From Escherichia coli (lineage in GTDB: Bacteria > Pseudomonadota > Gammaproteobacteria > Enterobacterales > Enterobacteriaceae), in NCBI RefSeq assembly GCF_044324875.1, contig NZ_CP172185.1: a stretch of 64,000 bases of DNA; one strand, given 5' to 3'. How positions within the stretch are numbered: the first letter of the stretch is position 1; the number at the start of each line of letters is the position of its first letter. Below the pieces are notes generated by a model. That model did no database searches. It was given only the letters and a program-made list of their open reading frames with translations, and was not told the DNA's origin. The translations under genes were made by a program, and so were the position numbers. Positions 7,228-60,766 of this stretch are shown here, in pieces.

Positions 7228-8640
7228 ATGACGCGTTATCAACATCTGGCGACTCTGCTTGCCGAGCGGATTGAGCAGGGGCTGTATCGTCACGGGGAGA
7301 AATTGCCGTCGGTGCGCAGCTTAAGTCAGGAGCACGGCGTCAGCATCAGCACCGTGCAGCAGGCGTATCAGACGCTGGAGACGATGAAGCTCATCACCCC
7401 ACAGCCGCGTTCGGGTTATTTTGTCGCACAACGTAAAGCCCAGCCGCCAGTGCCGCCGATGACGCGTCCGGTGCAGCGCCCGGTGGAAATTACCCAGTGG
7501 GATCAGGTGCTGGATATGCTGGAGGCGCATAGCGACAGTTCCATTGTTCCGTTAAGTAAAAGCACGCCGGATGTCGAAACGCCCAGCCTGAAACCGCTGT
7601 GGCGGGAGCTAAGCCGGGTGGTGCAGCATAATCTGCAAACCGTTCTCGGTTATGACTTGTTAGCCGGTCAGCGAGTGTTGCGAGAGCAGATTGCCCGCCT
7701 GATGCTCGACAGCGGCTCGGTGGTCACTGCCGATGACATCATCATCACCAGCGGCTGCCATAACTCGATGTCGCTGGCGTTAATGGCGGTGTGTAAACCG
7801 GGCGATATTGTCGCGGTCGAATCCCCCTGTTATTACGGTTCGATGCAGATGCTGCGTGGCATGGGCGTGAAAGTGATTGAAATCCCAACCGATCCAGAAA
7901 CAGGCATCAGCGTTGAAGCGCTGGAACTGGCGCTGGAACAGTGGCCGATTAAAGGCATCATTCTGGTGCCAAACTGTAATAATCCGCTGGGATTTATTAT
8001 GCCGGACGCGCGCAAACGGGCCGTTCTCTCTCTCGCTCAGCGTCATGATATTGTGATTTTTGAAGATGATGTCTACGGCGAACTGGCAACGGAGTATCCG
8101 CGCCCGCGGACCATTCATTCCTGGGATATCGACGGGCGAGTGCTGTTGTGCAGCTCATTCAGTAAAAGTATTGCACCTGGCCTGCGCGTGGGTTGGGTCG
8201 CACCGGGGCGTTATCACGATAAACTGATGCATATGAAATACGCCATCAGCAGCTTTAATGTACCGTCCACGCAAATGGCGGCGGCAACGTTTGTGCTGGA
8301 AGGTCACTATCATCGCCATATCCGGCGGATGCGGCAGATCTATCAGCGCAATTTGGCGCTTTATACCTGCTGGATACGGGAATATTTTCCCTGCGAAATC
8401 TGCATTACGCGCCCGAAAGGCGGATTTTTACTGTGGATCGAATTGCCTGAACAGGTCGATATGGTCTGCGTCGCACGGCAGCTATACCGCATGAAAATCC
8501 AGGTGGCGGCAGGCTCGATTTTCTCAGCTTCCGGCAAATACCGTAATTGTCTGCGCATCAACTGCGCTTTGCCGCTCAGCGAAACCTATCGCGAAGCACT
8601 GAAGCAAATTGGCGAAGCCGTGTATCGGGCAATGGAATGA
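7228..8640 (+). CDS. yjiR: MocR-family transcriptional regulator (GntR-type HTH fused to aminotransferase-like domain)
   Basis: 470 aa; N-terminal winged-HTH (LPSVRSLSQEHGVSISTVQQAY), C-terminal PLP-fold aminotransferase-like domain including SFSKSIAPGLRVGW. Confidence 0.9.
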   Translation: MTRYQHLATLLAERIEQGLYRHGEKLPSVRSLSQEHGVSISTVQQAYQTLETMKLITPQPRSGYFVAQRKAQPPVPPMTRPVQRPVEITQWDQVLDMLEAHSDSSIVPLSKSTPDVETPSLKPLWRELSRVVQHNLQTVLGYDLLAGQRVLREQIARLMLDSGSVVTADDIIITSGCHNSMSLALMAVCKPGDIVAVESPCYYGSMQMLRGMGVKVIEIPTDPETGISVEALELALEQWPIKGIILVPNCNNPLGFIMPDARKRAVLSLAQRHDIVIFEDDVYGELATEYPRPRTIHSWDIDGRVLLCSSFSKSIAPGLRVGWVAPGRYHDKLMHMKYAISSFNVPSTQMAAATFVLEGHYHRHIRRMRQIYQRNLALYTCWIREYFPCEICITRPKGGFLLWIELPEQVDMVCVARQLYRMKIQVAAGSIFSASGKYRNCLRINCALPLSETYREALKQIGEAVYRAME

Positions 8641-8757
8641 ATTCGAAATAGTGGCGAGCCCCCTGATTTCCTCTCACGAATAGCGTGTGACTTGTTTTAA
8701 CTTTGCAGGGTCATCTCCACGTTCCAGCATGGCTTAGGTAAAATGCGCTTCGTTCAT

Positions 8758-8857
8758 GCCGGATGCCATGTGAACGCCTTACCAGGTCTACAAAATTTTT
8801 AAAGTTCAATATATTTAATGGGTTATGTAGACCTGATAAGCGTAGCACATCAGGCAG
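8758..8857. repeat. REP/BIME-type palindromic units (two REP-like elements in opposite orientation)
   Basis: gccggatgccatgtgaacgccttaccaggtctac and gtagacctgataagcgtagcacatcaggca resemble the E. coli REP consensus. Confidence 0.55.
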
Positions 8858-8882
8858 TTTTGCGTTTGTCATCAGTCTCTGA

Positions 8883-9964
8883 TTAGTACTCGATCCATGG
8901 ATCGCGCTTGCTTTCAGGCAAGGGCTGATCTAATGCCTGCATTTGCTCTGCCGAAAGTCCGGTATATCGTTGTATCCATTCAGGATCCGCCCCATTCTGC
9001 AACAACAATCGGAGGAGGCTCCGTTCCCCTTCTACTTTCCCTTCTTTCCTCCCCCTCTCCCTTCCCAACAGCCATCCATCATTATGAATTCGCTCTGCAA
9101 TCGTCATTATTCGCTCCCTTTGTTGTGGCATTCGACTGGTTAGTTCGCTGATAAACTCTTTAAAACGCGCTTCATCGCCAGTCAGTAAAATGTAATTTAA
9201 CAGCGCAGTTATCTGGCTGTCATTAGTACACTCTGTAACCAGTAATACTACCAGTTGGTCGATAAGCCCCATCAGATCGCGCTGGCGAATATGCTTTTGG
9301 ATCAACTCCAACAGGGCGACTCTGCGGTGCTGCACAATCTCGTCGTCTGGCACGACAGTGATATCCACCAGCGGGAACGCGGCGGTATATACTCGTCATA
9401 CTTCAAGTTGCATGTGCTGCGACTGCGTTCATTCACCCCAGTCACTTACTTTTGTAAGCTCCTGGGGATTCACTCACTTGTCGCCTTCCTGCAACTTGAA
9501 TTATTTAGAGTATAAAGCTTCCGTGCGGTGGTCGGGTCAGCAAATTCGTCCAGCCAGCACAGGGACCAGGGGTAAGGACTACGGCTACCGTGATAAAACA
9601 GCATCGGGATGACCAGCGGTAGCGGCCGGCGTTTATCATGCTCGATATGGCGCTGCATCACCGCCATGGAATATCGCATCAGGCGAAAGGCCATATGGAT
9701 ATCCTCGCGGCTCTGATGTTCAATCACTACGTAAATATAACCATCACCTTCACGGGTCTTTACCGACCACAGAATATCAGAGTGTAGCGCCCGCAATTTT
9801 TCATCGACAAAGCTGGCGGATTCCAGTTTTAAGCTGTCGAGATCGCACAATTCACGTAAATCTATTGGTAAGTGGATCTCCATAAAATCCCGCGCGGTGT
9901 CAGGGTGGGTGAGAAAGGATTTAAATAATGCGTCATGCGGCGTACTGGTCGTGAAGTTTGTCAT
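8883..9964 (-). pseudogene. rpnD: Rpn-family (YhgA-like, PD-(D/E)xK) recombination-promoting nuclease gene split into two frames (yjiP + yjiQ fragments)
   Basis: N-terminal fragment 9470..9964 ([18 protein letters not shown]...) and C-terminal fragment 8883..9368 are in different frames separated by ~100 bp; same split arrangement as the K-12 yjiP/yjiQ pseudogene. Confidence 0.65.
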
Positions 9965-10430
9965 GGCGATCCGTCACCTGTTGATAAGATGGCCCGACTT
10001 TAGCGACTAACAAAACCATTCTCACCCGGCAATTTCCCGTTCCCCGAGGCGCTTTCCAGGCTATTTTTGTTCTTCTGCAAACGATACATTTTTCCGGAAA
10101 CAGGCTCGCGTTTTACATGTCCTGTACCCGGCAGATATTCCTCTTTCCACCGCGCTCTTTTGATTAACCGCAAATTTTAATTACACTTAAGGTGTATATT
10201 TTCTATGCAACCCATCAATTCAAGAGGTGTAATGTGCTGATGACTATTTGTAATCGTTATACATTCTGACCAGAACTCAGAAGGTATTTCTCTGTCTGTA
10301 TAAGCACAGGCAGTGTGGTTGATTACATGAAATTCAGTACATTTGTCCTTCTCGCCTGCCTTTCGTCATTACCGACGGTATTGAATTTCGTTTTCCCCAT
10401 TGGGGTTCTCCGGACAAGGAGTTGTTTGTT

Positions 10431-44128: not shown

Positions 44129-44442
44129 TTGGGGCCATTTTGACTCATAGAGGAAAGCATCGCGCACAAACTTTTTCAGTTTATTTGTTGGCTTAATATT
44201 CTATTGTTATCTTTATTTATAGATTTTTATATTGCATGAGGTGGTTTTTGGAGAGAAGAATGAGGAAGATGCGTCGAGCCACAGAAACGTTAGCTTTACA
44301 TTTGGCGGAGGTGATGTGAAATTAATTTACAAGAGAAATAATTTACATATCAAACAGTTAGATGCTTTTTATCGTTTTTTAATATTTTTATGCTTGAGAA
44401 AAAATACGTAACTTATTTATGATATGGACAGTTTGGCCCCAA
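44129..44442. promoter_or_regulatory. fimS: fimS invertible phase-variation switch (314 bp) bounded by 9-bp inverted repeats
   Basis: TTGGGGCCA at 44129..44137 and its reverse complement TGGCCCCAA at 44434..44442, exactly 314 bp end to end, between fimA and fimE. Confidence 0.9.
44394..44423 (+). promoter_or_regulatory. Sigma70-type promoter inside fimS (TTGAGA-N18-TATGAT) reading out through the fimE-proximal inverted repeat, i.e. away from fimA (switch in OFF orientation)
   Basis: -35 TTGAGA 44394..44399, -10 TATGAT 44418..44423; the only good outward-facing promoter in the element; the fimA-proximal end has only a weak TTGTGC-N14-TATGAG. Confidence 0.5.
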
Positions 44443-44489
44443 TTGTCTTGTATTTATTTGTTTTTTAACTTTATTATCAATAAGTTAAA

Positions 44490-45086
44490 TCAAACCTCTT
44501 CTCTTTTTAATTTTTCGTTTATGAGATTATTTCTTTCCCATAATCCGGCAAAACGAGCAGCATTACTGGCGGTATAACGTACAGTATGGCGAATATTTCG
44601 ATGCCCGAGATAATCCTGAATTAAACGGGTATCGGCACCACGCTCCGCCAGTTCATAACCGCAAGCATGCCTTAACATATGAGGATGAGTCTGCGTTACG
44701 GTTCCAGCTTCAATACCTGCATCGCGAATAATGCGATAGGCCTGCTGGCGAGAAAGCCGACTCCCGCGGCGAGAAATAAATATAGCGTCGGTCCGGTCAG
44801 CGCCTTTCCAGTTAGCACGTTCCTGGGTCCAGCGTTCCACGGCTTCACGCTCATCAAAACGTAACGGGTGAACGGTAGAAAATCCGTTCTTCAGTCGGCG
44901 AATATTTATTCGACCTTCATTAAGGTCAAGATCCTGATAATGCAGATCAAGCAGTTCACTAATACGCATCCCATGCCGATATGCCAACAGAATAAGACAA
45001 TAATCTCTGGCTCCCGTTGCCCCGTAACAAACCGCCTGCATCATGGCCTGAACTTCTTTACCGGTAAGATAACGACGTTTACTCAC
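44490..45086 (-). CDS. fimE: Tyrosine site-specific recombinase (fim switch, ON-to-OFF)
   Basis: 198 aa; integrase-family catalytic residues (R..HxxR..Y) near the C-terminus (HMLRHACGYELAERG...YLGHRNIRHTVRYTAS). Confidence 0.95.
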   Translation of the reverse strand: MSKRRYLTGKEVQAMMQAVCYGATGARDYCLILLAYRHGMRISELLDLHYQDLDLNEGRINIRRLKNGFSTVHPLRFDEREAVERWTQERANWKGADRTDAIFISRRGSRLSRQQAYRIIRDAGIEAGTVTQTHPHMLRHACGYELAERGADTRLIQDYLGHRNIRHTVRYTASNAARFAGLWERNNLINEKLKREEV

Positions 45087-45563
45087 AATAGTAGTACTCC
45101 TGACTGAGATATATTTGAATGAATACCTATAGGAAACCTCAATCGGTCAAAATTAGCCCAATAGATAAAAAGATAACCACACACGAAGTGATGTGGCTAT
45201 CAGTCAATTACATTAAATATCATACAAAAATAAAATATCACTGATGTGACAACATCTATTTTCATTGATTTGATTCAATATAACAATAGATTGCAGAAGA
45301 TTAACTTCCAGTTGCTTAAAAAATAAAGAAAAAAGTGTGGAAACAGGAGAATTTAAGTGATGTGTAAATTTATGAATGATTTTGTTTATTTATTTTGAAG
45401 AACATAAACCATTGGATTTTGTATGGGTATGGTTAACTTAATGTTTATTATGATAATTAAGAATCACACTTACAATAACATCAATTAATAAATGGTTAAT
45501 CATTTTTGATATATCGTAAGAATAATGTAGTTTTTAACACCATCCCTGGTATCTCAACTATCT

Positions 45564-46166
45564 CTATAAAACAGCGTGACGCTGTCGTCCTCTGGCTCTA
45601 TCCCAGATGCCGTAAAAACGCCCTGCATTACTGGCGGTATACCAGACAGTATGACGAATATTGCGATGCCCAAGATAATCCTGGATAAGTCGCGTATCTA
45701 TTCCCATATTCGCCAAAGCAAAACCACACGAATGGCGTAACATGTGCGGATGAATCTCCAGTGACAACCCGGCATTACCACCAGAAGTCGAGATAATATG
45801 GTAAAACTGTTGCCGAGAAAGCGGATTCCCCTTACGTGATAAAAATACCCACTCGCTCTCAGCATGCGGGTACGAAGTACGGATACTCAACCAGTTTTTT
45901 AAAGCCTGAACTTCTTTGTTCAATAGCGGGTGCGTTGTTGAAAAGCCTTTTTTTAATCGATGGATATATATACACTTTGCCTTAAGATCAATATCCGAAA
46001 TCCTCAATCGACAAATTTCACTCGCCCGGAAACCATGAATAAAACAAAGCAAAGTCAGACAATAATTACGTGCTGCATGAGGCCCGGTATTTGCTGCTTT
46101 AAGGAGTGACTCGATTTCACTATGGGTAAGGAAGTTCCTTTTTTTGTTATCAGCCTTATTCTTCAT
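45564..46166 (-). CDS. fimB: Tyrosine site-specific recombinase (fim switch, bidirectional)
   Basis: 200 aa paralogue of fimE (HMLRHSCGFALANMG...YLGHRNIRHTVWYTAS). Confidence 0.95.
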   Translation of the reverse strand: MKNKADNKKRNFLTHSEIESLLKAANTGPHAARNYCLTLLCFIHGFRASEICRLRISDIDLKAKCIYIHRLKKGFSTTHPLLNKEVQALKNWLSIRTSYPHAESEWVFLSRKGNPLSRQQFYHIISTSGGNAGLSLEIHPHMLRHSCGFALANMGIDTRLIQDYLGHRNIRHTVWYTASNAGRFYGIWDRARGRQRHAVL

Positions 46167-47179
46167 CGTTTTCCCTTATAATTACAGACGCGCACTAGCT
46201 GTGCTGGGTTAGCAATAATCCAACATTTTAATCCTGATTATGTTTATAAAAGCGAACGTTTGCTTAATAACTAACGTAAGTGGACCAGTTCTTCTGAGCG
46301 AACTTAAATGGAGTAGCGATAGTTACTTATAATAACTTTGCCATACAAACGCCATGCTCTTGCATGCTATGTACCTTTATATATTTATCAATCTGGTACG
46401 AATCTAATAATAACCCTCATCATTAATGCAACTAATCTTATCTATATATCATGTGATATGTTCTGTAACAAGTAAAATCAACATAAAAAATTCAGCAAAA
46501 TTTAATATTCGTTCAACTAGCCGTCTCACATATGACATTATTAGTCAACTCCACTTGCCACAAAATGGCTATTTCATGGAACGCAGTAATTTCTTAGTGG
46601 CTATTATCAAGCTAATTCTTAGGTCCCTAGCGATTATTCCTGGCTGGTTCGTCAGTTTAGGTCATGAGATTGTTACATTCCTTTTTATCCTGGAGATATG
46701 GGGGAACGCAGGCGACGCTTTTTCATCTACATCCGTTGGTAAATATGGCTTTGGTCACTACGACTTAAACCTTCCTCAATCACAGCTATTCGCCGGGCGA
46801 TACGGCAAACAAACTAAGTGAAACATCATCCTGAAAACGCCAACATCAACAAGCCTCTCCAGATCGACATCAGGAGTGACCAGTTACAAGCCACAAACCA
46901 AGAAACATATTTCATGATGAGAATTATGCTCAGCCTGATGGCGGGTAAACCCTTATTTTCACCAAGCTCACTGAGTTAGCTTGCAAAGCTTCCTTTGTTT
47001 AGATTCTAAATAAATTATTTATAAAACATATAGTTAAAAGAAAATCTTTAGTTTTTGAAGACCACCGCAATTGTTCGTCTGGCTTCACATGGCATCTGCC
47101 TCTTAGAAAAAGATCGACATATTTTGTGACACGAATTGCAAATCTGGTTTTGTTGTATGGATTGCGTGATTTTTGATCT

Positions 47180-47202
47180 GGTATAACAGGTATAAAGGTG
47201 CA
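47180..47202 (+). promoter_or_regulatory. Putative NanR operator (GGTATA hexamer repeats) upstream of nanC
   Basis: GGTATAacaGGTATAaagGTGCAC: two perfect and one degenerate GGTATA unit, the pattern NanR is known to bind; ~430 bp upstream of nanC in the long fimB-nanC regulatory region. Confidence 0.5.
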
Positions 47203-47617
47203 CCACGATAGTCAATGAAACTGGGCATCTCGCAATCTATGGCAAACATCACTTCAGTTCTTTCTCATCGGGTGATGAAAACGCACTTCAGTCTGAAAGG
47301 AATATGAAAATGAGATCAACAGACACTCTATTTTATGACTCTGGGTAAAATGGATTGAGTAAGTGATATAGCTTACGAACATTCAAATCAATTAAACATC
47401 AGAAGAGATTTTATACTCAGGTATTTAATCTGGTTCTCTGTTTATTTAAATAATGTGGAAAGAGAATTTTCACAGGAGACCTTATACAAAAAATATAAAA
47501 TAAGCTACCCGTTGCCAAAGACACTATAAGCCTGGCAAAAAATATTACACAACATAAATGCTAATTGTTTATGCGGGCTTTGTATTGCTTTCTGTATCCT
47601 ACAAATGAGTGAAATTT

Positions 47618-48334
47618 ATGAAAAAGGCTAAAATACTTTCTGGCGTATTATTACTGTGCTTTTCGTCACCATTAATTTCTCAGGCTGCGACACTGGACGT
47701 ACGTGGTGGATATCGTAGCGGAAGCCATGCCTATGAGACTCGACTCAAAGTCAGTGAGGGATGGCAAAATGGATGGTGGGCAAGCATGGAAAGTAATACC
47801 TGGAATACCATTCATGATAATAAAAAGGAAAATGCCGCACTCAATGATGTTCAGGTTGAAGTTAATTACGCGATTAAACTTGATGATCAATGGACGGTGC
47901 GCCCGGGAATGTTAACGCATTTTAGCAGCAACGGCACACGCTACGGACCCTACGTAAAACTGTCCTGGGACGCGACAAAAGATCTTAATTTTGGCATTCG
48001 CTATCGTTACGACTGGAAAGCTTACCGACAACAAGACTTATCCGGTGATATGTCTCGTGATAACGTTCATCGTTGGGATGGATATGTCACTTACCATATT
48101 AATAGTGATTTCACCTTCGCATGGCAAACGACGCTATACAGCAAACAGAATGATTATCGCTATGCAAACCACAAGAAATGGGCGACGGAAAATGCCTTTG
48201 TTCTACAATACCATATGACGCCCGATATTACGCCATACATAGAATATGACTACCTTGACCGCCAGGGTGTTTACAACGGCAGAGATAATTTATCGGAAAA
48301 CAGTTATCGCATTGGTGTGTCATTTAAACTGTAG
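47618..48334 (+). CDS. nanC: N-acetylneuraminic acid outer-membrane channel (KdgM-family porin)
   Basis: 238 aa from MKKAKILSGVLLLCFSSPLISQA; ends with aromatic residue pattern typical of beta-barrels (VSFKL). Confidence 0.9.
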   Translation: MKKAKILSGVLLLCFSSPLISQAATLDVRGGYRSGSHAYETRLKVSEGWQNGWWASMESNTWNTIHDNKKENAALNDVQVEVNYAIKLDDQWTVRPGMLTHFSSNGTRYGPYVKLSWDATKDLNFGIRYRYDWKAYRQQDLSGDMSRDNVHRWDGYVTYHINSDFTFAWQTTLYSKQNDYRYANHKKWATENAFVLQYHMTPDITPYIEYDYLDRQGVYNGRDNLSENSYRIGVSFKL

Positions 48335-58147: not shown

Positions 58148-58151
58148 ATAG

Positions 58152-59306
58152 TCAAACTCCTAGAAGCTCATATATTAATGCTTGTCTAAGATTAAAATAA
58201 TGTTCTTTTTTATCTCTCAGCACCTTCAATATTTTCTCGAGCGATTCCAATTTTTTTACTAAAATATCTGAGTCAGTAAATAATTTATTATGAATGAAGA
58301 TATCATCAAAAACTCTTACTGTTACTCTTTGCCTACCTGAAGTGCCTTCCATGTGATGAAGAGCATAATGCCTAAATTTCTTTGTTTTGATTATGTAATA
58401 ACCAAGTTTCTTTAGAAAATGATCTTCAAATTTTGATCTCATCACTATAAACTCAGTGGATCCCACAGCTATACTCTCTTCTGCAAGAAAATCAACAAAT
58501 GCTGCCTTACCATTTTCAAAACAAGGTGTGATTCTAGCCAAAAGGATATCATCTTTTCTAAATTTCATACCAGAAGATTTTCCTGACTTAGTTTCTCCTT
58601 TATAGTCTATATATGGAAGTTCAACATCTAAAGATGCCATATCAACATATGGTATTATTTCATCCACTGACCCAATCTTTGGATTAATTAAAAAAGAATC
58701 ACTTAATGAACTCCAGTCATTCTTTTTCCCAGCTGATGTTGTCGCCAGATAAATACCTACTTCAGCATCTATAACATCCTGATATAACTTTCTTACCGAT
58801 AATATAGTTTCATTAAGATGCATATAGCATTCATGGAATTTGTCAAGAATAACTAAGGCACTATTTTGTTTTTCTCTATCGAGAATATTAAATTTAAAGC
58901 TTACAACATCCTTCCATCTAATATGCTTATTAGTTGAACCAATAGTATTTTTTAACGTATGCTCAGCAAAACTTTCAGATTGAAAGATATATGGAAGCAA
59001 TCGACTTTCAAAACCATGATATTGCTTTGGCGTACATACAATAACCTTCTCACCACAATATCCTTCTCTATCAGCTATCGCGACTTTTCTTAACTGCGGA
59101 TTTCTAGTTAGATAAAGTATGTCTCCTGGGCTAAATTTCTTCCCAAAAGTTGGCCCCATATCATCAGGGGCGATTCCGTAGCGAGAGAAAAATATTTCAC
59201 AATTATCAAAGTCTTCTCCTCTTACACAATATTTAACATTAGGATCTAAATTATTCTTCTCCCATATGTTTTTTTCTTTTACTAAGTCAGAAAGAGTAAT
59301 CTTCAT
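58152..59306 (-). CDS. hsdS: Type I R-M specificity subunit (HsdS)
   Basis: 384 aa; TRD motif RITPCFENGKAAFV and TSGRQRV; AT-rich; start overlaps stop of upstream hsdM paralogue (ATGA). Confidence 0.85.
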   Translation of the reverse strand: MKITLSDLVKEKNIWEKNNLDPNVKYCVRGEDFDNCEIFFSRYGIAPDDMGPTFGKKFSPGDILYLTRNPQLRKVAIADREGYCGEKVIVCTPKQYHGFESRLLPYIFQSESFAEHTLKNTIGSTNKHIRWKDVVSFKFNILDREKQNSALVILDKFHECYMHLNETILSVRKLYQDVIDAEVGIYLATTSAGKKNDWSSLSDSFLINPKIGSVDEIIPYVDMASLDVELPYIDYKGETKSGKSSGMKFRKDDILLARITPCFENGKAAFVDFLAEESIAVGSTEFIVMRSKFEDHFLKKLGYYIIKTKKFRHYALHHMEGTSGRQRVTVRVFDDIFIHNKLFTDSDILVKKLESLEKILKVLRDKKEHYFNLRQALIYELLGV

Positions 59307-60766
59307 ATCTTTCCTCCATTAAAAAAGTAAGAAGAGTTCATATTCAATTCTTTTCTAAACGATTGCCATTTACTTATCTCCCTTGAGAGATTTAAATCTT
59401 TAAATTCTTTTTCTATATACACAGGAACATTTAGATTAAAATCGTTATCTTCGACTTCCTCGATAGAGGCTATATACGTAGTAATATTAGAGACATCCTT
59501 CAAACTAATGTAAGAGTTATAGATATTCATTATATTAATATCATTTAAATAAGCATGATTCCTAGTGGTAATAAGTTCATCATAGGCATTTATAAATAAT
59601 ATTTTCCCTTTTAGCTCAGTTCGTTTATTGCAATTCAACAAAATAATACATGCCGGCATAGGTGAATTATAAAACAATCCAGGGCCAAGACTAATTACAC
59701 ATTCAATAATATCTGTTTGAATAATTTTTTCTCTGAGCTGTTTCTCACTTTCTCTGAAGAGAACTCCATTTGGCCAGAGCATAGCTGCGCGACCAGTATC
59801 AGGCTTCAGGCTTTTAATTATATGGGTATAAAACGCATAATCAGCACAGCCCTGCGGTGGTACACCATAAAGATTACGACCATACGGATCAGCGGCAAAC
59901 TTGTCACGATTCCATTTCTTAATGGAGTACGGTGGGTTAGCAAAAATCACATCAAACTGCTTGAGCCGATCGTTTTCAATAAACTTTGGTTCAGCCAGAG
60001 TATCACCGCGCAGCACATCAAATTCTTCAATATCGTGCAGGAACATATTCATACGAGCAATAGCGGAAGTCAGCAGGTTCACTTCCTGGCCATAAAGGTG
60101 CACAGAGCGCCACTCTTCTCCTCTTGCACGAAGATCCATCACTGCATTTAGCAACATCCCTCCAGTGCCACACGTTGGATCATAGGCTGTTTCACCCGGT
60201 TTTAAGCCCATAATGCGCGTCATTAAATGCACGACTGTTCGGTTGGTGTAGAACTCTGCTGCCGTATGACCGGAATCATCAGCGAACTTTTTAATCAGGT
60301 ATTCGTAGGCTTCACCAAGATCATCCTGGGCGACAGATTTAATGCCGAGCGGAATTTTACTGAAATGTTCAATCAGATCAGCCAGCAGATGATCGGGAAG
60401 GCGCTCTTTATTGGTCCACTGTGCATCACCGAAGACGCCATGTAAACGCGGGTTATTGGCTTCAATTAGTCGAAGCGCATTCTGGATCGCTTCACCAATG
60501 TTTTTACTGGTATTGCGTACCTTTTCCCAACTGGCTTCAGAGGGAATATTGAAACGGTGAAACATCGGCATGGCGGCATATTCAGCATCACCTTCATGGA
60601 GTTCCAGCGCTTCGTTATATTCTTCCAGATAGACATCTGACAGGCGTTTGTAAAACAGCAACGGGAAGATATACTGCTTGTAGTCTGATGCGTCAATTTG
60701 GCCACGAAGAAATTCGGCGGCTCCCCAGAGCAGCTCTTCCAGCTTTTTATTACTCATAGTACTCAT
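59303..60766 (-). CDS. hsdM: Type I R-M methyltransferase subunit, paralogue 2 (divergent HsdM)
   Basis: 487 aa; YDPTCGTGGML, NPPYS; EFYTNR replaces the usual EFYTPR; 3' third is AT-rich; ATGA overlap with paralogue 1 stop. Confidence 0.85.
   Translation of the reverse strand: MSTMSNKKLEELLWGAAEFLRGQIDASDYKQYIFPLLFYKRLSDVYLEEYNEALELHEGDAEYAAMPMFHRFNIPSEASWEKVRNTSKNIGEAIQNALRLIEANNPRLHGVFGDAQWTNKERLPDHLLADLIEHFSKIPLGIKSVAQDDLGEAYEYLIKKFADDSGHTAAEFYTNRTVVHLMTRIMGLKPGETAYDPTCGTGGMLLNAVMDLRARGEEWRSVHLYGQEVNLLTSAIARMNMFLHDIEEFDVLRGDTLAEPKFIENDRLKQFDVIFANPPYSIKKWNRDKFAADPYGRNLYGVPPQGCADYAFYTHIIKSLKPDTGRAAMLWPNGVLFRESEKQLREKIIQTDIIECVISLGPGLFYNSPMPACIILLNCNKRTELKGKILFINAYDELITTRNHAYLNDINIMNIYNSYISLKDVSNITTYIASIEEVEDNDFNLNVPVYIEKEFKDLNLSREISKWQSFRKELNMNSSYFFNGGKI

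Follow-up and report, generated by a model that had tools for sequence, protein, structure and literature searches.

An intact fim switch in an Escherichia coli genome, very probably recorded in the phase-OFF orientation

The fim switch and related invertible promoters

Since 1985, the fim switch of E. coli has been a textbook case of a DNA inversion that causes phase variation. The same logic, wherein a site-specific recombinase of the tyrosine type flips a short promoter-bearing segment between inverted repeats and thereby generates ON/OFF phase variation, is found in fimS of Klebsiella pneumoniae and in the invertible promoters of Bacteroides. These elements are analogues of the locus described here, which is the E. 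coli fim system itself.

Two recombinases act on the E. coli element. FimB switches it in both directions, whereas FimE, the dominant of the two, acts chiefly in the ON-to-OFF direction, which leaves most cells OFF, and inversion is further shaped by IHF, Lrp, Fis and H-NS (bioRxiv 10.1101/2022.09.20.508701; PMC9096935; PMC2647292). The OFF orientation is defined as the one in which the fimA promoter points away from its gene (PMC2647292; bioRxiv 10.1101/2022.09.20.508701). Strains locked OFF are without fimbriae, and in aerated cultures the switch is OFF in essentially every cell (PMC2978726; PMC9096935). Furthermore, a Rho-dependent terminator within fimS shortens and destabilises the fimE mRNA only in the OFF orientation, whereas with the switch ON the fimE transcript reads through into fimA (PMC2647292).

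The DNA analysed here is a 64-kb stretch of an E. coli genome (termed the window), and a complete type 1 fimbrial locus occupies its minus strand down to position 37414. Within this locus we are highly confident that positions 44129-44442 constitute the classical invertible promoter element of type 1 fimbriae in E. coli, fimS, and that the assembly records it phase-OFF (Table 1). The fimS element of strain MG1655 (NC_000913.3, between fimE, b4313, and fimA, b4314) has the same 314 bp, the same repeats, the same flanking genes and the same orientation. Specifically, the interval from fimE through fimS to fimA is collinear with that of MG1655 and 99% identical to it, and fimS itself is about 98-99% identical. 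Six substitutions inside fimS and three minor differences in the flanking DNA separate the two sequences; the repeats, their immediate flanks and the -35 and -10 hexamers are all identical, and the SnaBI, BstUI and HinfI sites fall at the same places. It is the K-12 fimS element, to which that of the window is ~98% identical, in which the binding sites that inversion requires, for IHF and Lrp and also for Fis and H-NS, were mapped. The locus is thus a canonical fim switch in a canonical state, and as such is already known.

Table 1. Coordinates of the fim switch, its internal features and the surrounding fim genes in the window
Feature	Coordinates	Strand	Basis
fimS, 314-bp invertible element, phase-OFF	44129..44442		Boundaries, MG1655 collinearity, in-silico orientation assays, inversion in strain Z142-7
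fimA-proximal 9-bp inverted repeat (IRR by convention), TTGGGGCCA	44129..44137		Sequence and Z142-7 breakpoints
fimE-proximal 9-bp inverted repeat (IRL by convention), TGGCCCCAA	44434..44442		Sequence and Z142-7 breakpoints
PfimA-like sigma-70 promoter (putative), TTGAGA-N18-TATGAT	44394..44423	+	10/12 consensus, best in region
SnaBI site TACGTA, asymmetric, 35 bp from the fimE-proximal end in the present orientation	44405..44410		Site used in published assay
BstUI site CGCG, Dorman-lab orientation assay	44161..44164		In-silico assay
C-rich, G-poor tract, candidate rut region of the Rho-dependent fimE terminator	44234..44273	-	17 C and 2 G in 40 nt
fimB, tyrosine-type DNA invertase, 200 aa, full length	45564..46166	-	NF007370, 458.4 bits, profile 1-200/200
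fimE, tyrosine-type DNA invertase, 198 aa, full length	44490..45086	-	NF007371, 451.7 bits, profile 1-198/198
fimA, type 1 fimbrial major subunit, 182 aa	43461..44009	-	NF011741 FimA, 184.9 bits vs cut-off 140; ATG at 44009
fimI-fimH block, all ORFs uninterrupted	37414..43396	-	ORF list with NCBIfam and E300010 comparison
fimI	42857-43396	-	NCBIfam above cut-off
fimC	42095-42820	-	FimC model is top match, 258.2 bits vs cut-off 327 (below)
fimD, 878-aa uninterrupted ORF	39392-42028	-	NCBIfam above cut-off
fimF	38852-39385	-	NCBIfam above cut-off
fimG	38336-38845	-	NCBIfam above cut-off
fimH	37414-38325	-	99% DNA identity to annotated fimH of strain E300010

Boundaries of the element and the genes around it

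The element occupies most of the 480-bp spacer between fimE and fimA, with fimB and fimE upstream, fimAICDFGH downstream, and a gene order that matches MG1655. On the fimE side, 47 bp separate the stop codon of that gene from the fimE-proximal repeat; on the fimA side, the distance between the ATG and the fimA-proximal repeat is 119 bp. The first-pass annotation of this DNA had described an intact 314-bp element with perfect 9-bp inverted repeats, and we confirmed this description: TGGCCCCAA is the exact reverse complement of TTGGGGCCA, and the segment that they bound is present at its full 314 bp, free of deletions.

By itself, a 9-bp inverted repeat is uninformative, because 53 perfect 9-bp inverted pairs with a spacing of 250-400 bp occur within the 64-kb window. 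We therefore dropped repeat statistics as a line of evidence. That the pair is real follows instead from its position between fimE and fimA, from its collinearity with fimS of MG1655, and from a natural inversion in strain Z142-7 (NZ_CP159686.1) that breaks within the repeats. This phase-ON strain carries the same element and flanks as the window. Its flanking sequences are collinear with the window up to position 44137 and again from position 44434, and only the interval 44125-44446 is inverted, which places the natural crossover within the 9-bp repeats. Its 314-bp segment is opposite to that of the window and its promoter faces fimA.

The surrounding genes were assigned by a combination of profile searches and comparison with annotated genomes. 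Matches above the curated NCBIfam cut-offs were obtained for the FimA, FimI, FimD, FimF, FimG, FimE and FimB subfamilies. The search returned no NCBIfam match for fimH at the limit of 1e-40, and this gene was assigned by its DNA identity to an annotated homolog (Table 1).

Two of the reading frames in the program-made ORF list are over-extended, running past the annotated starts of their genes. For fimI, the list gives a 223-aa ORF that begins with TTG (42857-43528, minus strand), versus an annotated protein of 179 aa with its ATG at 43396. For fimA, a 201-aa ORF that begins with GTG reaches back to 44066, versus the annotated 182 aa with the ATG at 44009. The intergenic region between fimA and fimI is 100% identical to that of MG1655 over 81 bp and includes the equivalent of the 35-nt FimR2 (b4838) at positions 43416-43450 on the minus strand. 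FimR2 is annotated as a small regulatory RNA in MG1655, and its equivalent in the window gave no Rfam match at E <= 0.1. More broadly, an Rfam scan of positions 43000-47800 at the same limit (E <= 0.1) yielded zero matches.

Orientation of the element

The direction of the promoter-like site provides one indication of the orientation of the switch. The sequence TTGAGA-N18-TATGAT agrees with the sigma-70 consensus at 10/12 positions and was the top site in a promoter scan of positions 43950-44650. Only 10 bp separate the end of its -10 box from the fimE-proximal repeat, and the site reads outward to fimE and away from fimA. The promoter end of fimS therefore adjoins the fimE-proximal repeat and not the fimA-proximal end, with the putative promoter on the plus strand and fimA on the minus strand at lower coordinates. 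In these respects the first-pass annotation, which had placed the site at 44394..44423 on the plus strand pointing toward fimE and fimA on the minus strand at lower coordinates, proved accurate. It had also called this the only strong promoter in the element. The site is indeed the best in the region scanned, but the distinction is not a statistical one: two weaker promoter-like sites match at 9/12 positions, and the three sites in the scan compare with 2.2 +/- 1.4 in shuffled sequences, which is no enrichment over chance. Because of this lack of enrichment the scan was dropped as a statistical test and was used for direction only. The two hexamers are probably those of the fimA promoter reportedly mapped by Olsen and Klemm in 1994, and this identity is consistent with the restriction assays described below. 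A full-text literature search for the hexamers together with fimA returned nothing relevant.

Two published orientation assays were carried out in silico. In the SnaBI assay, a 601-bp product is cleaved into fragments of 403 + 198 bp when the switch is ON and 440 + 161 bp when it is OFF (PMC11724981; PMC13276309). With the primers of this assay (CAGTAATGCTGCTCGTTTTGCCG and CAGAGCCGACAGAACAACG), the window yields a 601-bp amplicon (43968-44568) that SnaBI divides into 440 + 161 bp, which are the published OFF sizes; this orientation check, which the first-pass annotation had proposed, thus bore out its phase-OFF call. When the element is inverted in silico, the fragments become 405 + 196 bp versus the published ON values of 403 + 198 bp. 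An older primer pair for the same enzyme (PMC2978726) gives 602 bp, divided into 442 + 160 bp.

In the BstUI assay, a 539-bp band is diagnostic for OFF, and the ON pattern is 433 + 293 bp with the 433-bp band as the diagnostic one (bioRxiv 10.1101/2022.09.20.508701). We used the primers OL4 and OL20, with their sequences taken from PMC5293775. Digestion in silico produces 539 + 169 bp from the window as it stands and 293 + 415 bp after inversion of the element, and the fimE-side fragments (539 and 293 bp) are exactly equal to the published values. The fimA-side fragments are 18 bp short of the published sizes in both orientations (169 versus 187 bp and 415 versus 433 bp), and the amplicon is correspondingly 708 bp versus the published 726 bp. 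Perhaps the published sizes refer to a K-12 reporter strain or to a tailed primer; the mismatch has no effect on the OFF call.

Published fragment sizes for HinfI were also considered, both for a 602-bp product (ON 484 + 118, OFF 402 + 200) and for a 650-bp product (ON 522 + 128, OFF 411 + 239). Both sets were dropped because swapped primer offsets make them fit either orientation. BstUI fragment sizes alone are ambiguous in the same way, and it was the sequences of OL4 and OL20 that settled them.

A fourth line of evidence comes from base composition. Rho-utilisation sites look like C-rich, G-poor tracts on the strand of the transcript, and Hinde et al. are said to have mapped the fimE terminator, in 2005, to such a region of ~40 bp at the centre of fimS. 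The window has a 40-nt tract on the fimE-sense strand with 17 C and 2 G residues, whereas the best 40-nt interval on the plus strand has 10 C and 7 G. The presence of this tract on the fimE-sense strand fits a Rho-dependent terminator that would act on fimE only in the OFF orientation. A search of fimS for boxA-like motifs found nothing convincing on the fimE-sense strand.

Promoter direction, the SnaBI assay, the BstUI assay and the C-rich tract are four independent lines that agree, and they establish that the orientation is OFF, as the first-pass annotation had maintained. Alignment with the reference, which is collinear and in the same orientation, accords with this result. No evidence speaks against the OFF call beyond the small numerical mismatches in fragment sizes. 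We did consider whether the element could actually be ON, with the true fimA promoter at its opposite end, or else on its opposite strand, and driving fimA as the sequence stands. One of the two 9/12 sites (TTGATA-N18-TAAATT, 44353->44324, minus strand) does face fimA. However, this site is no better than chance in the promoter scan and lies ~195 bp inside the element, and the arrangement is one that the window shares with MG1655 and with 94% of genomes, as fits the reported OFF bias of cultures. Two restriction assays calibrated experimentally against phenotype both return the OFF pattern in silico. We give an ON orientation next to no credence, and the in-silico assays already refute it.

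Orientation among genomes and the state of the switch

How the two orientations are distributed among assembled genomes was determined with an 801-bp query (43900-44700) searched against 5426 complete E. coli genomes. The region is present in 4724 of the 5426 genomes, and the remaining 702 are without any match. The query matched end to end, in the orientation of the window, in 4458/4724 genomes (~94%). Another 248 (~5%) have the inverted arrangement and matched over the full query only after in-silico reverse-complementation of the 314 bp. The last 18 of the 4724 have a partial or disrupted region, one example having IS1 between the pieces. Z142-7 belongs to the inverted arrangement, and its identity to the query with the element inverted in silico is 99.8%. 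O157:H7-type genomes match the query over only 785 bp, as fits a 16-bp deletion in their fim switch region, and no such deletion is found in the window.

The OFF orientation is thus the default state in sequenced cultures, as seen in the MG1655 reference and in 4458 of 4724 complete genomes. It should not be taken as a defect of this assembly, because every fim gene is intact, those of the two recombinases included. What the sequence represents is the majority state of the culture that was sequenced, and not an inability to make fimbriae. The statement in the first-pass annotation that type 1 fimbriae are not expressed accordingly holds for cells in the present orientation and goes too far for the culture as a whole: a consensus sequence is silent on a minority ON subpopulation, and the fim genes are intact. 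For predictions of fimbriation or adhesion from this genome, the strain is best treated as fim-competent and phase-variable. Beyond correct annotation the locus is of little importance, although the census of complete assemblies that came with it (~94% OFF, ~5% ON) is of some small use.

In the established mechanism of the switch, FimB and FimE, both tyrosine recombinases, bind half-sites that flank the 9-bp repeats, and strand exchange within the repeats inverts the 314-bp segment, which carries the fimA promoter beside one of them. In the present orientation, the putative promoter on the plus strand would face fimE, leaving fimAICDFGH on the minus strand with no promoter and the cell with no fimbriae. 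The same promoter would fire antisense into the 3' end of fimE. Meanwhile, the fimE transcript would enter the switch on the minus strand and encounter the OFF-only, C-rich Rho terminator, such that the fimE mRNA is predicted to be shortened and destabilised. Judged from sequence, reversal of the switch is probable: fimB and fimE are intact, as are all structural genes and the repeats together with the DNA immediately beside them.

Antisense control has reportedly been considered, and then set aside, in the literature on the orientational control of fimE. Two more novel readings can be framed for the window: an antisense transcript from the fimA promoter might act alongside the known Rho-dependent terminator to silence fimE and so stabilise the OFF state, or the six substitutions in fimS might alter the switching bias. 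The sequence holds no evidence that argues for either, and we regard both as very doubtful.

Two other explanations accept that the recorded orientation is OFF and differ in what they take it to mean. The OFF state could be permanent in this strain, a locked switch rather than a snapshot of phase variation. The six substitutions relative to MG1655 might be invoked in its favour, as might the 785-bp match of O157:H7 genomes, which fits the 16-bp fimS deletion that locks O157:H7 OFF. Some lineages are locked or strongly biased toward OFF, and EPEC E2348/69 has been reported to be locked OFF (PMC9096935). In the window, however, the full 314 bp with perfect repeats are retained, the sequence around both repeats is as in K-12, and fimB and fimE are full length. 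Furthermore, the close fimS allele of Z142-7 has been assembled in the inverted state. A lock is therefore very unlikely indeed.

It is also conceivable that the culture was a substantial mixture of ON and OFF cells from which the assembler chose one path, in which case the recorded orientation would be an artefact of assembly and would say little about the population. Phase variation makes every culture mixed, static passage shows both orientations (PMC2978726), and 248 complete assemblies record ON, so that assemblies do capture the majority state. Against this, aerated laboratory cultures are overwhelmingly OFF (PMC2978726) and the bias that FimE imposes on the switch runs from ON to OFF (PMC9096935; PMC2647292), and for these reasons an OFF consensus is what an OFF-majority culture is expected to yield. 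The region has no sign of misassembly and is collinear with that of 4458 genomes. We assign an artefact of this kind a slim chance. Most likely the locus is an ordinary, reversible switch that was sequenced while in the majority state usual for it.

The best match to the 801-bp query was strain E300010 (human stool, Mozambique), which is 100% identical to the window over 43900-44700. In that strain fimD (locus 8615-12028) carries an IS1A insertion and is annotated as two pseudogene pieces. Because fimD of the window is an uninterrupted ORF of 878 aa, the window does not derive from strain E300010, and the operon that it carries is undamaged.

Between 41 kb and 63 kb of the window, the sole long stretch without a blastn match to E300010 is 58148-59756. 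This stretch contains a 384-aa ORF (58152-59306, minus strand), and the corresponding position in E300010 is annotated as the S (specificity) subunit of a type I restriction endonuclease. The R and M genes on either side are ~98% identical between the two genomes. The 58152-59306 ORF probably confers a target-recognition specificity different from that of the E300010 S subunit. The two genomes differ also in the gap between gntP and fimH (37202-37285), which spans ~84 bp in the window versus ~15 bp in E300010. The extra DNA is a G+C-rich palindromic stretch, cccctcgcccctccggggagagggttagggtgagggg, beside a REP-like sequence, and it resembles a small intergenic repeat element of the boxC-like kind.
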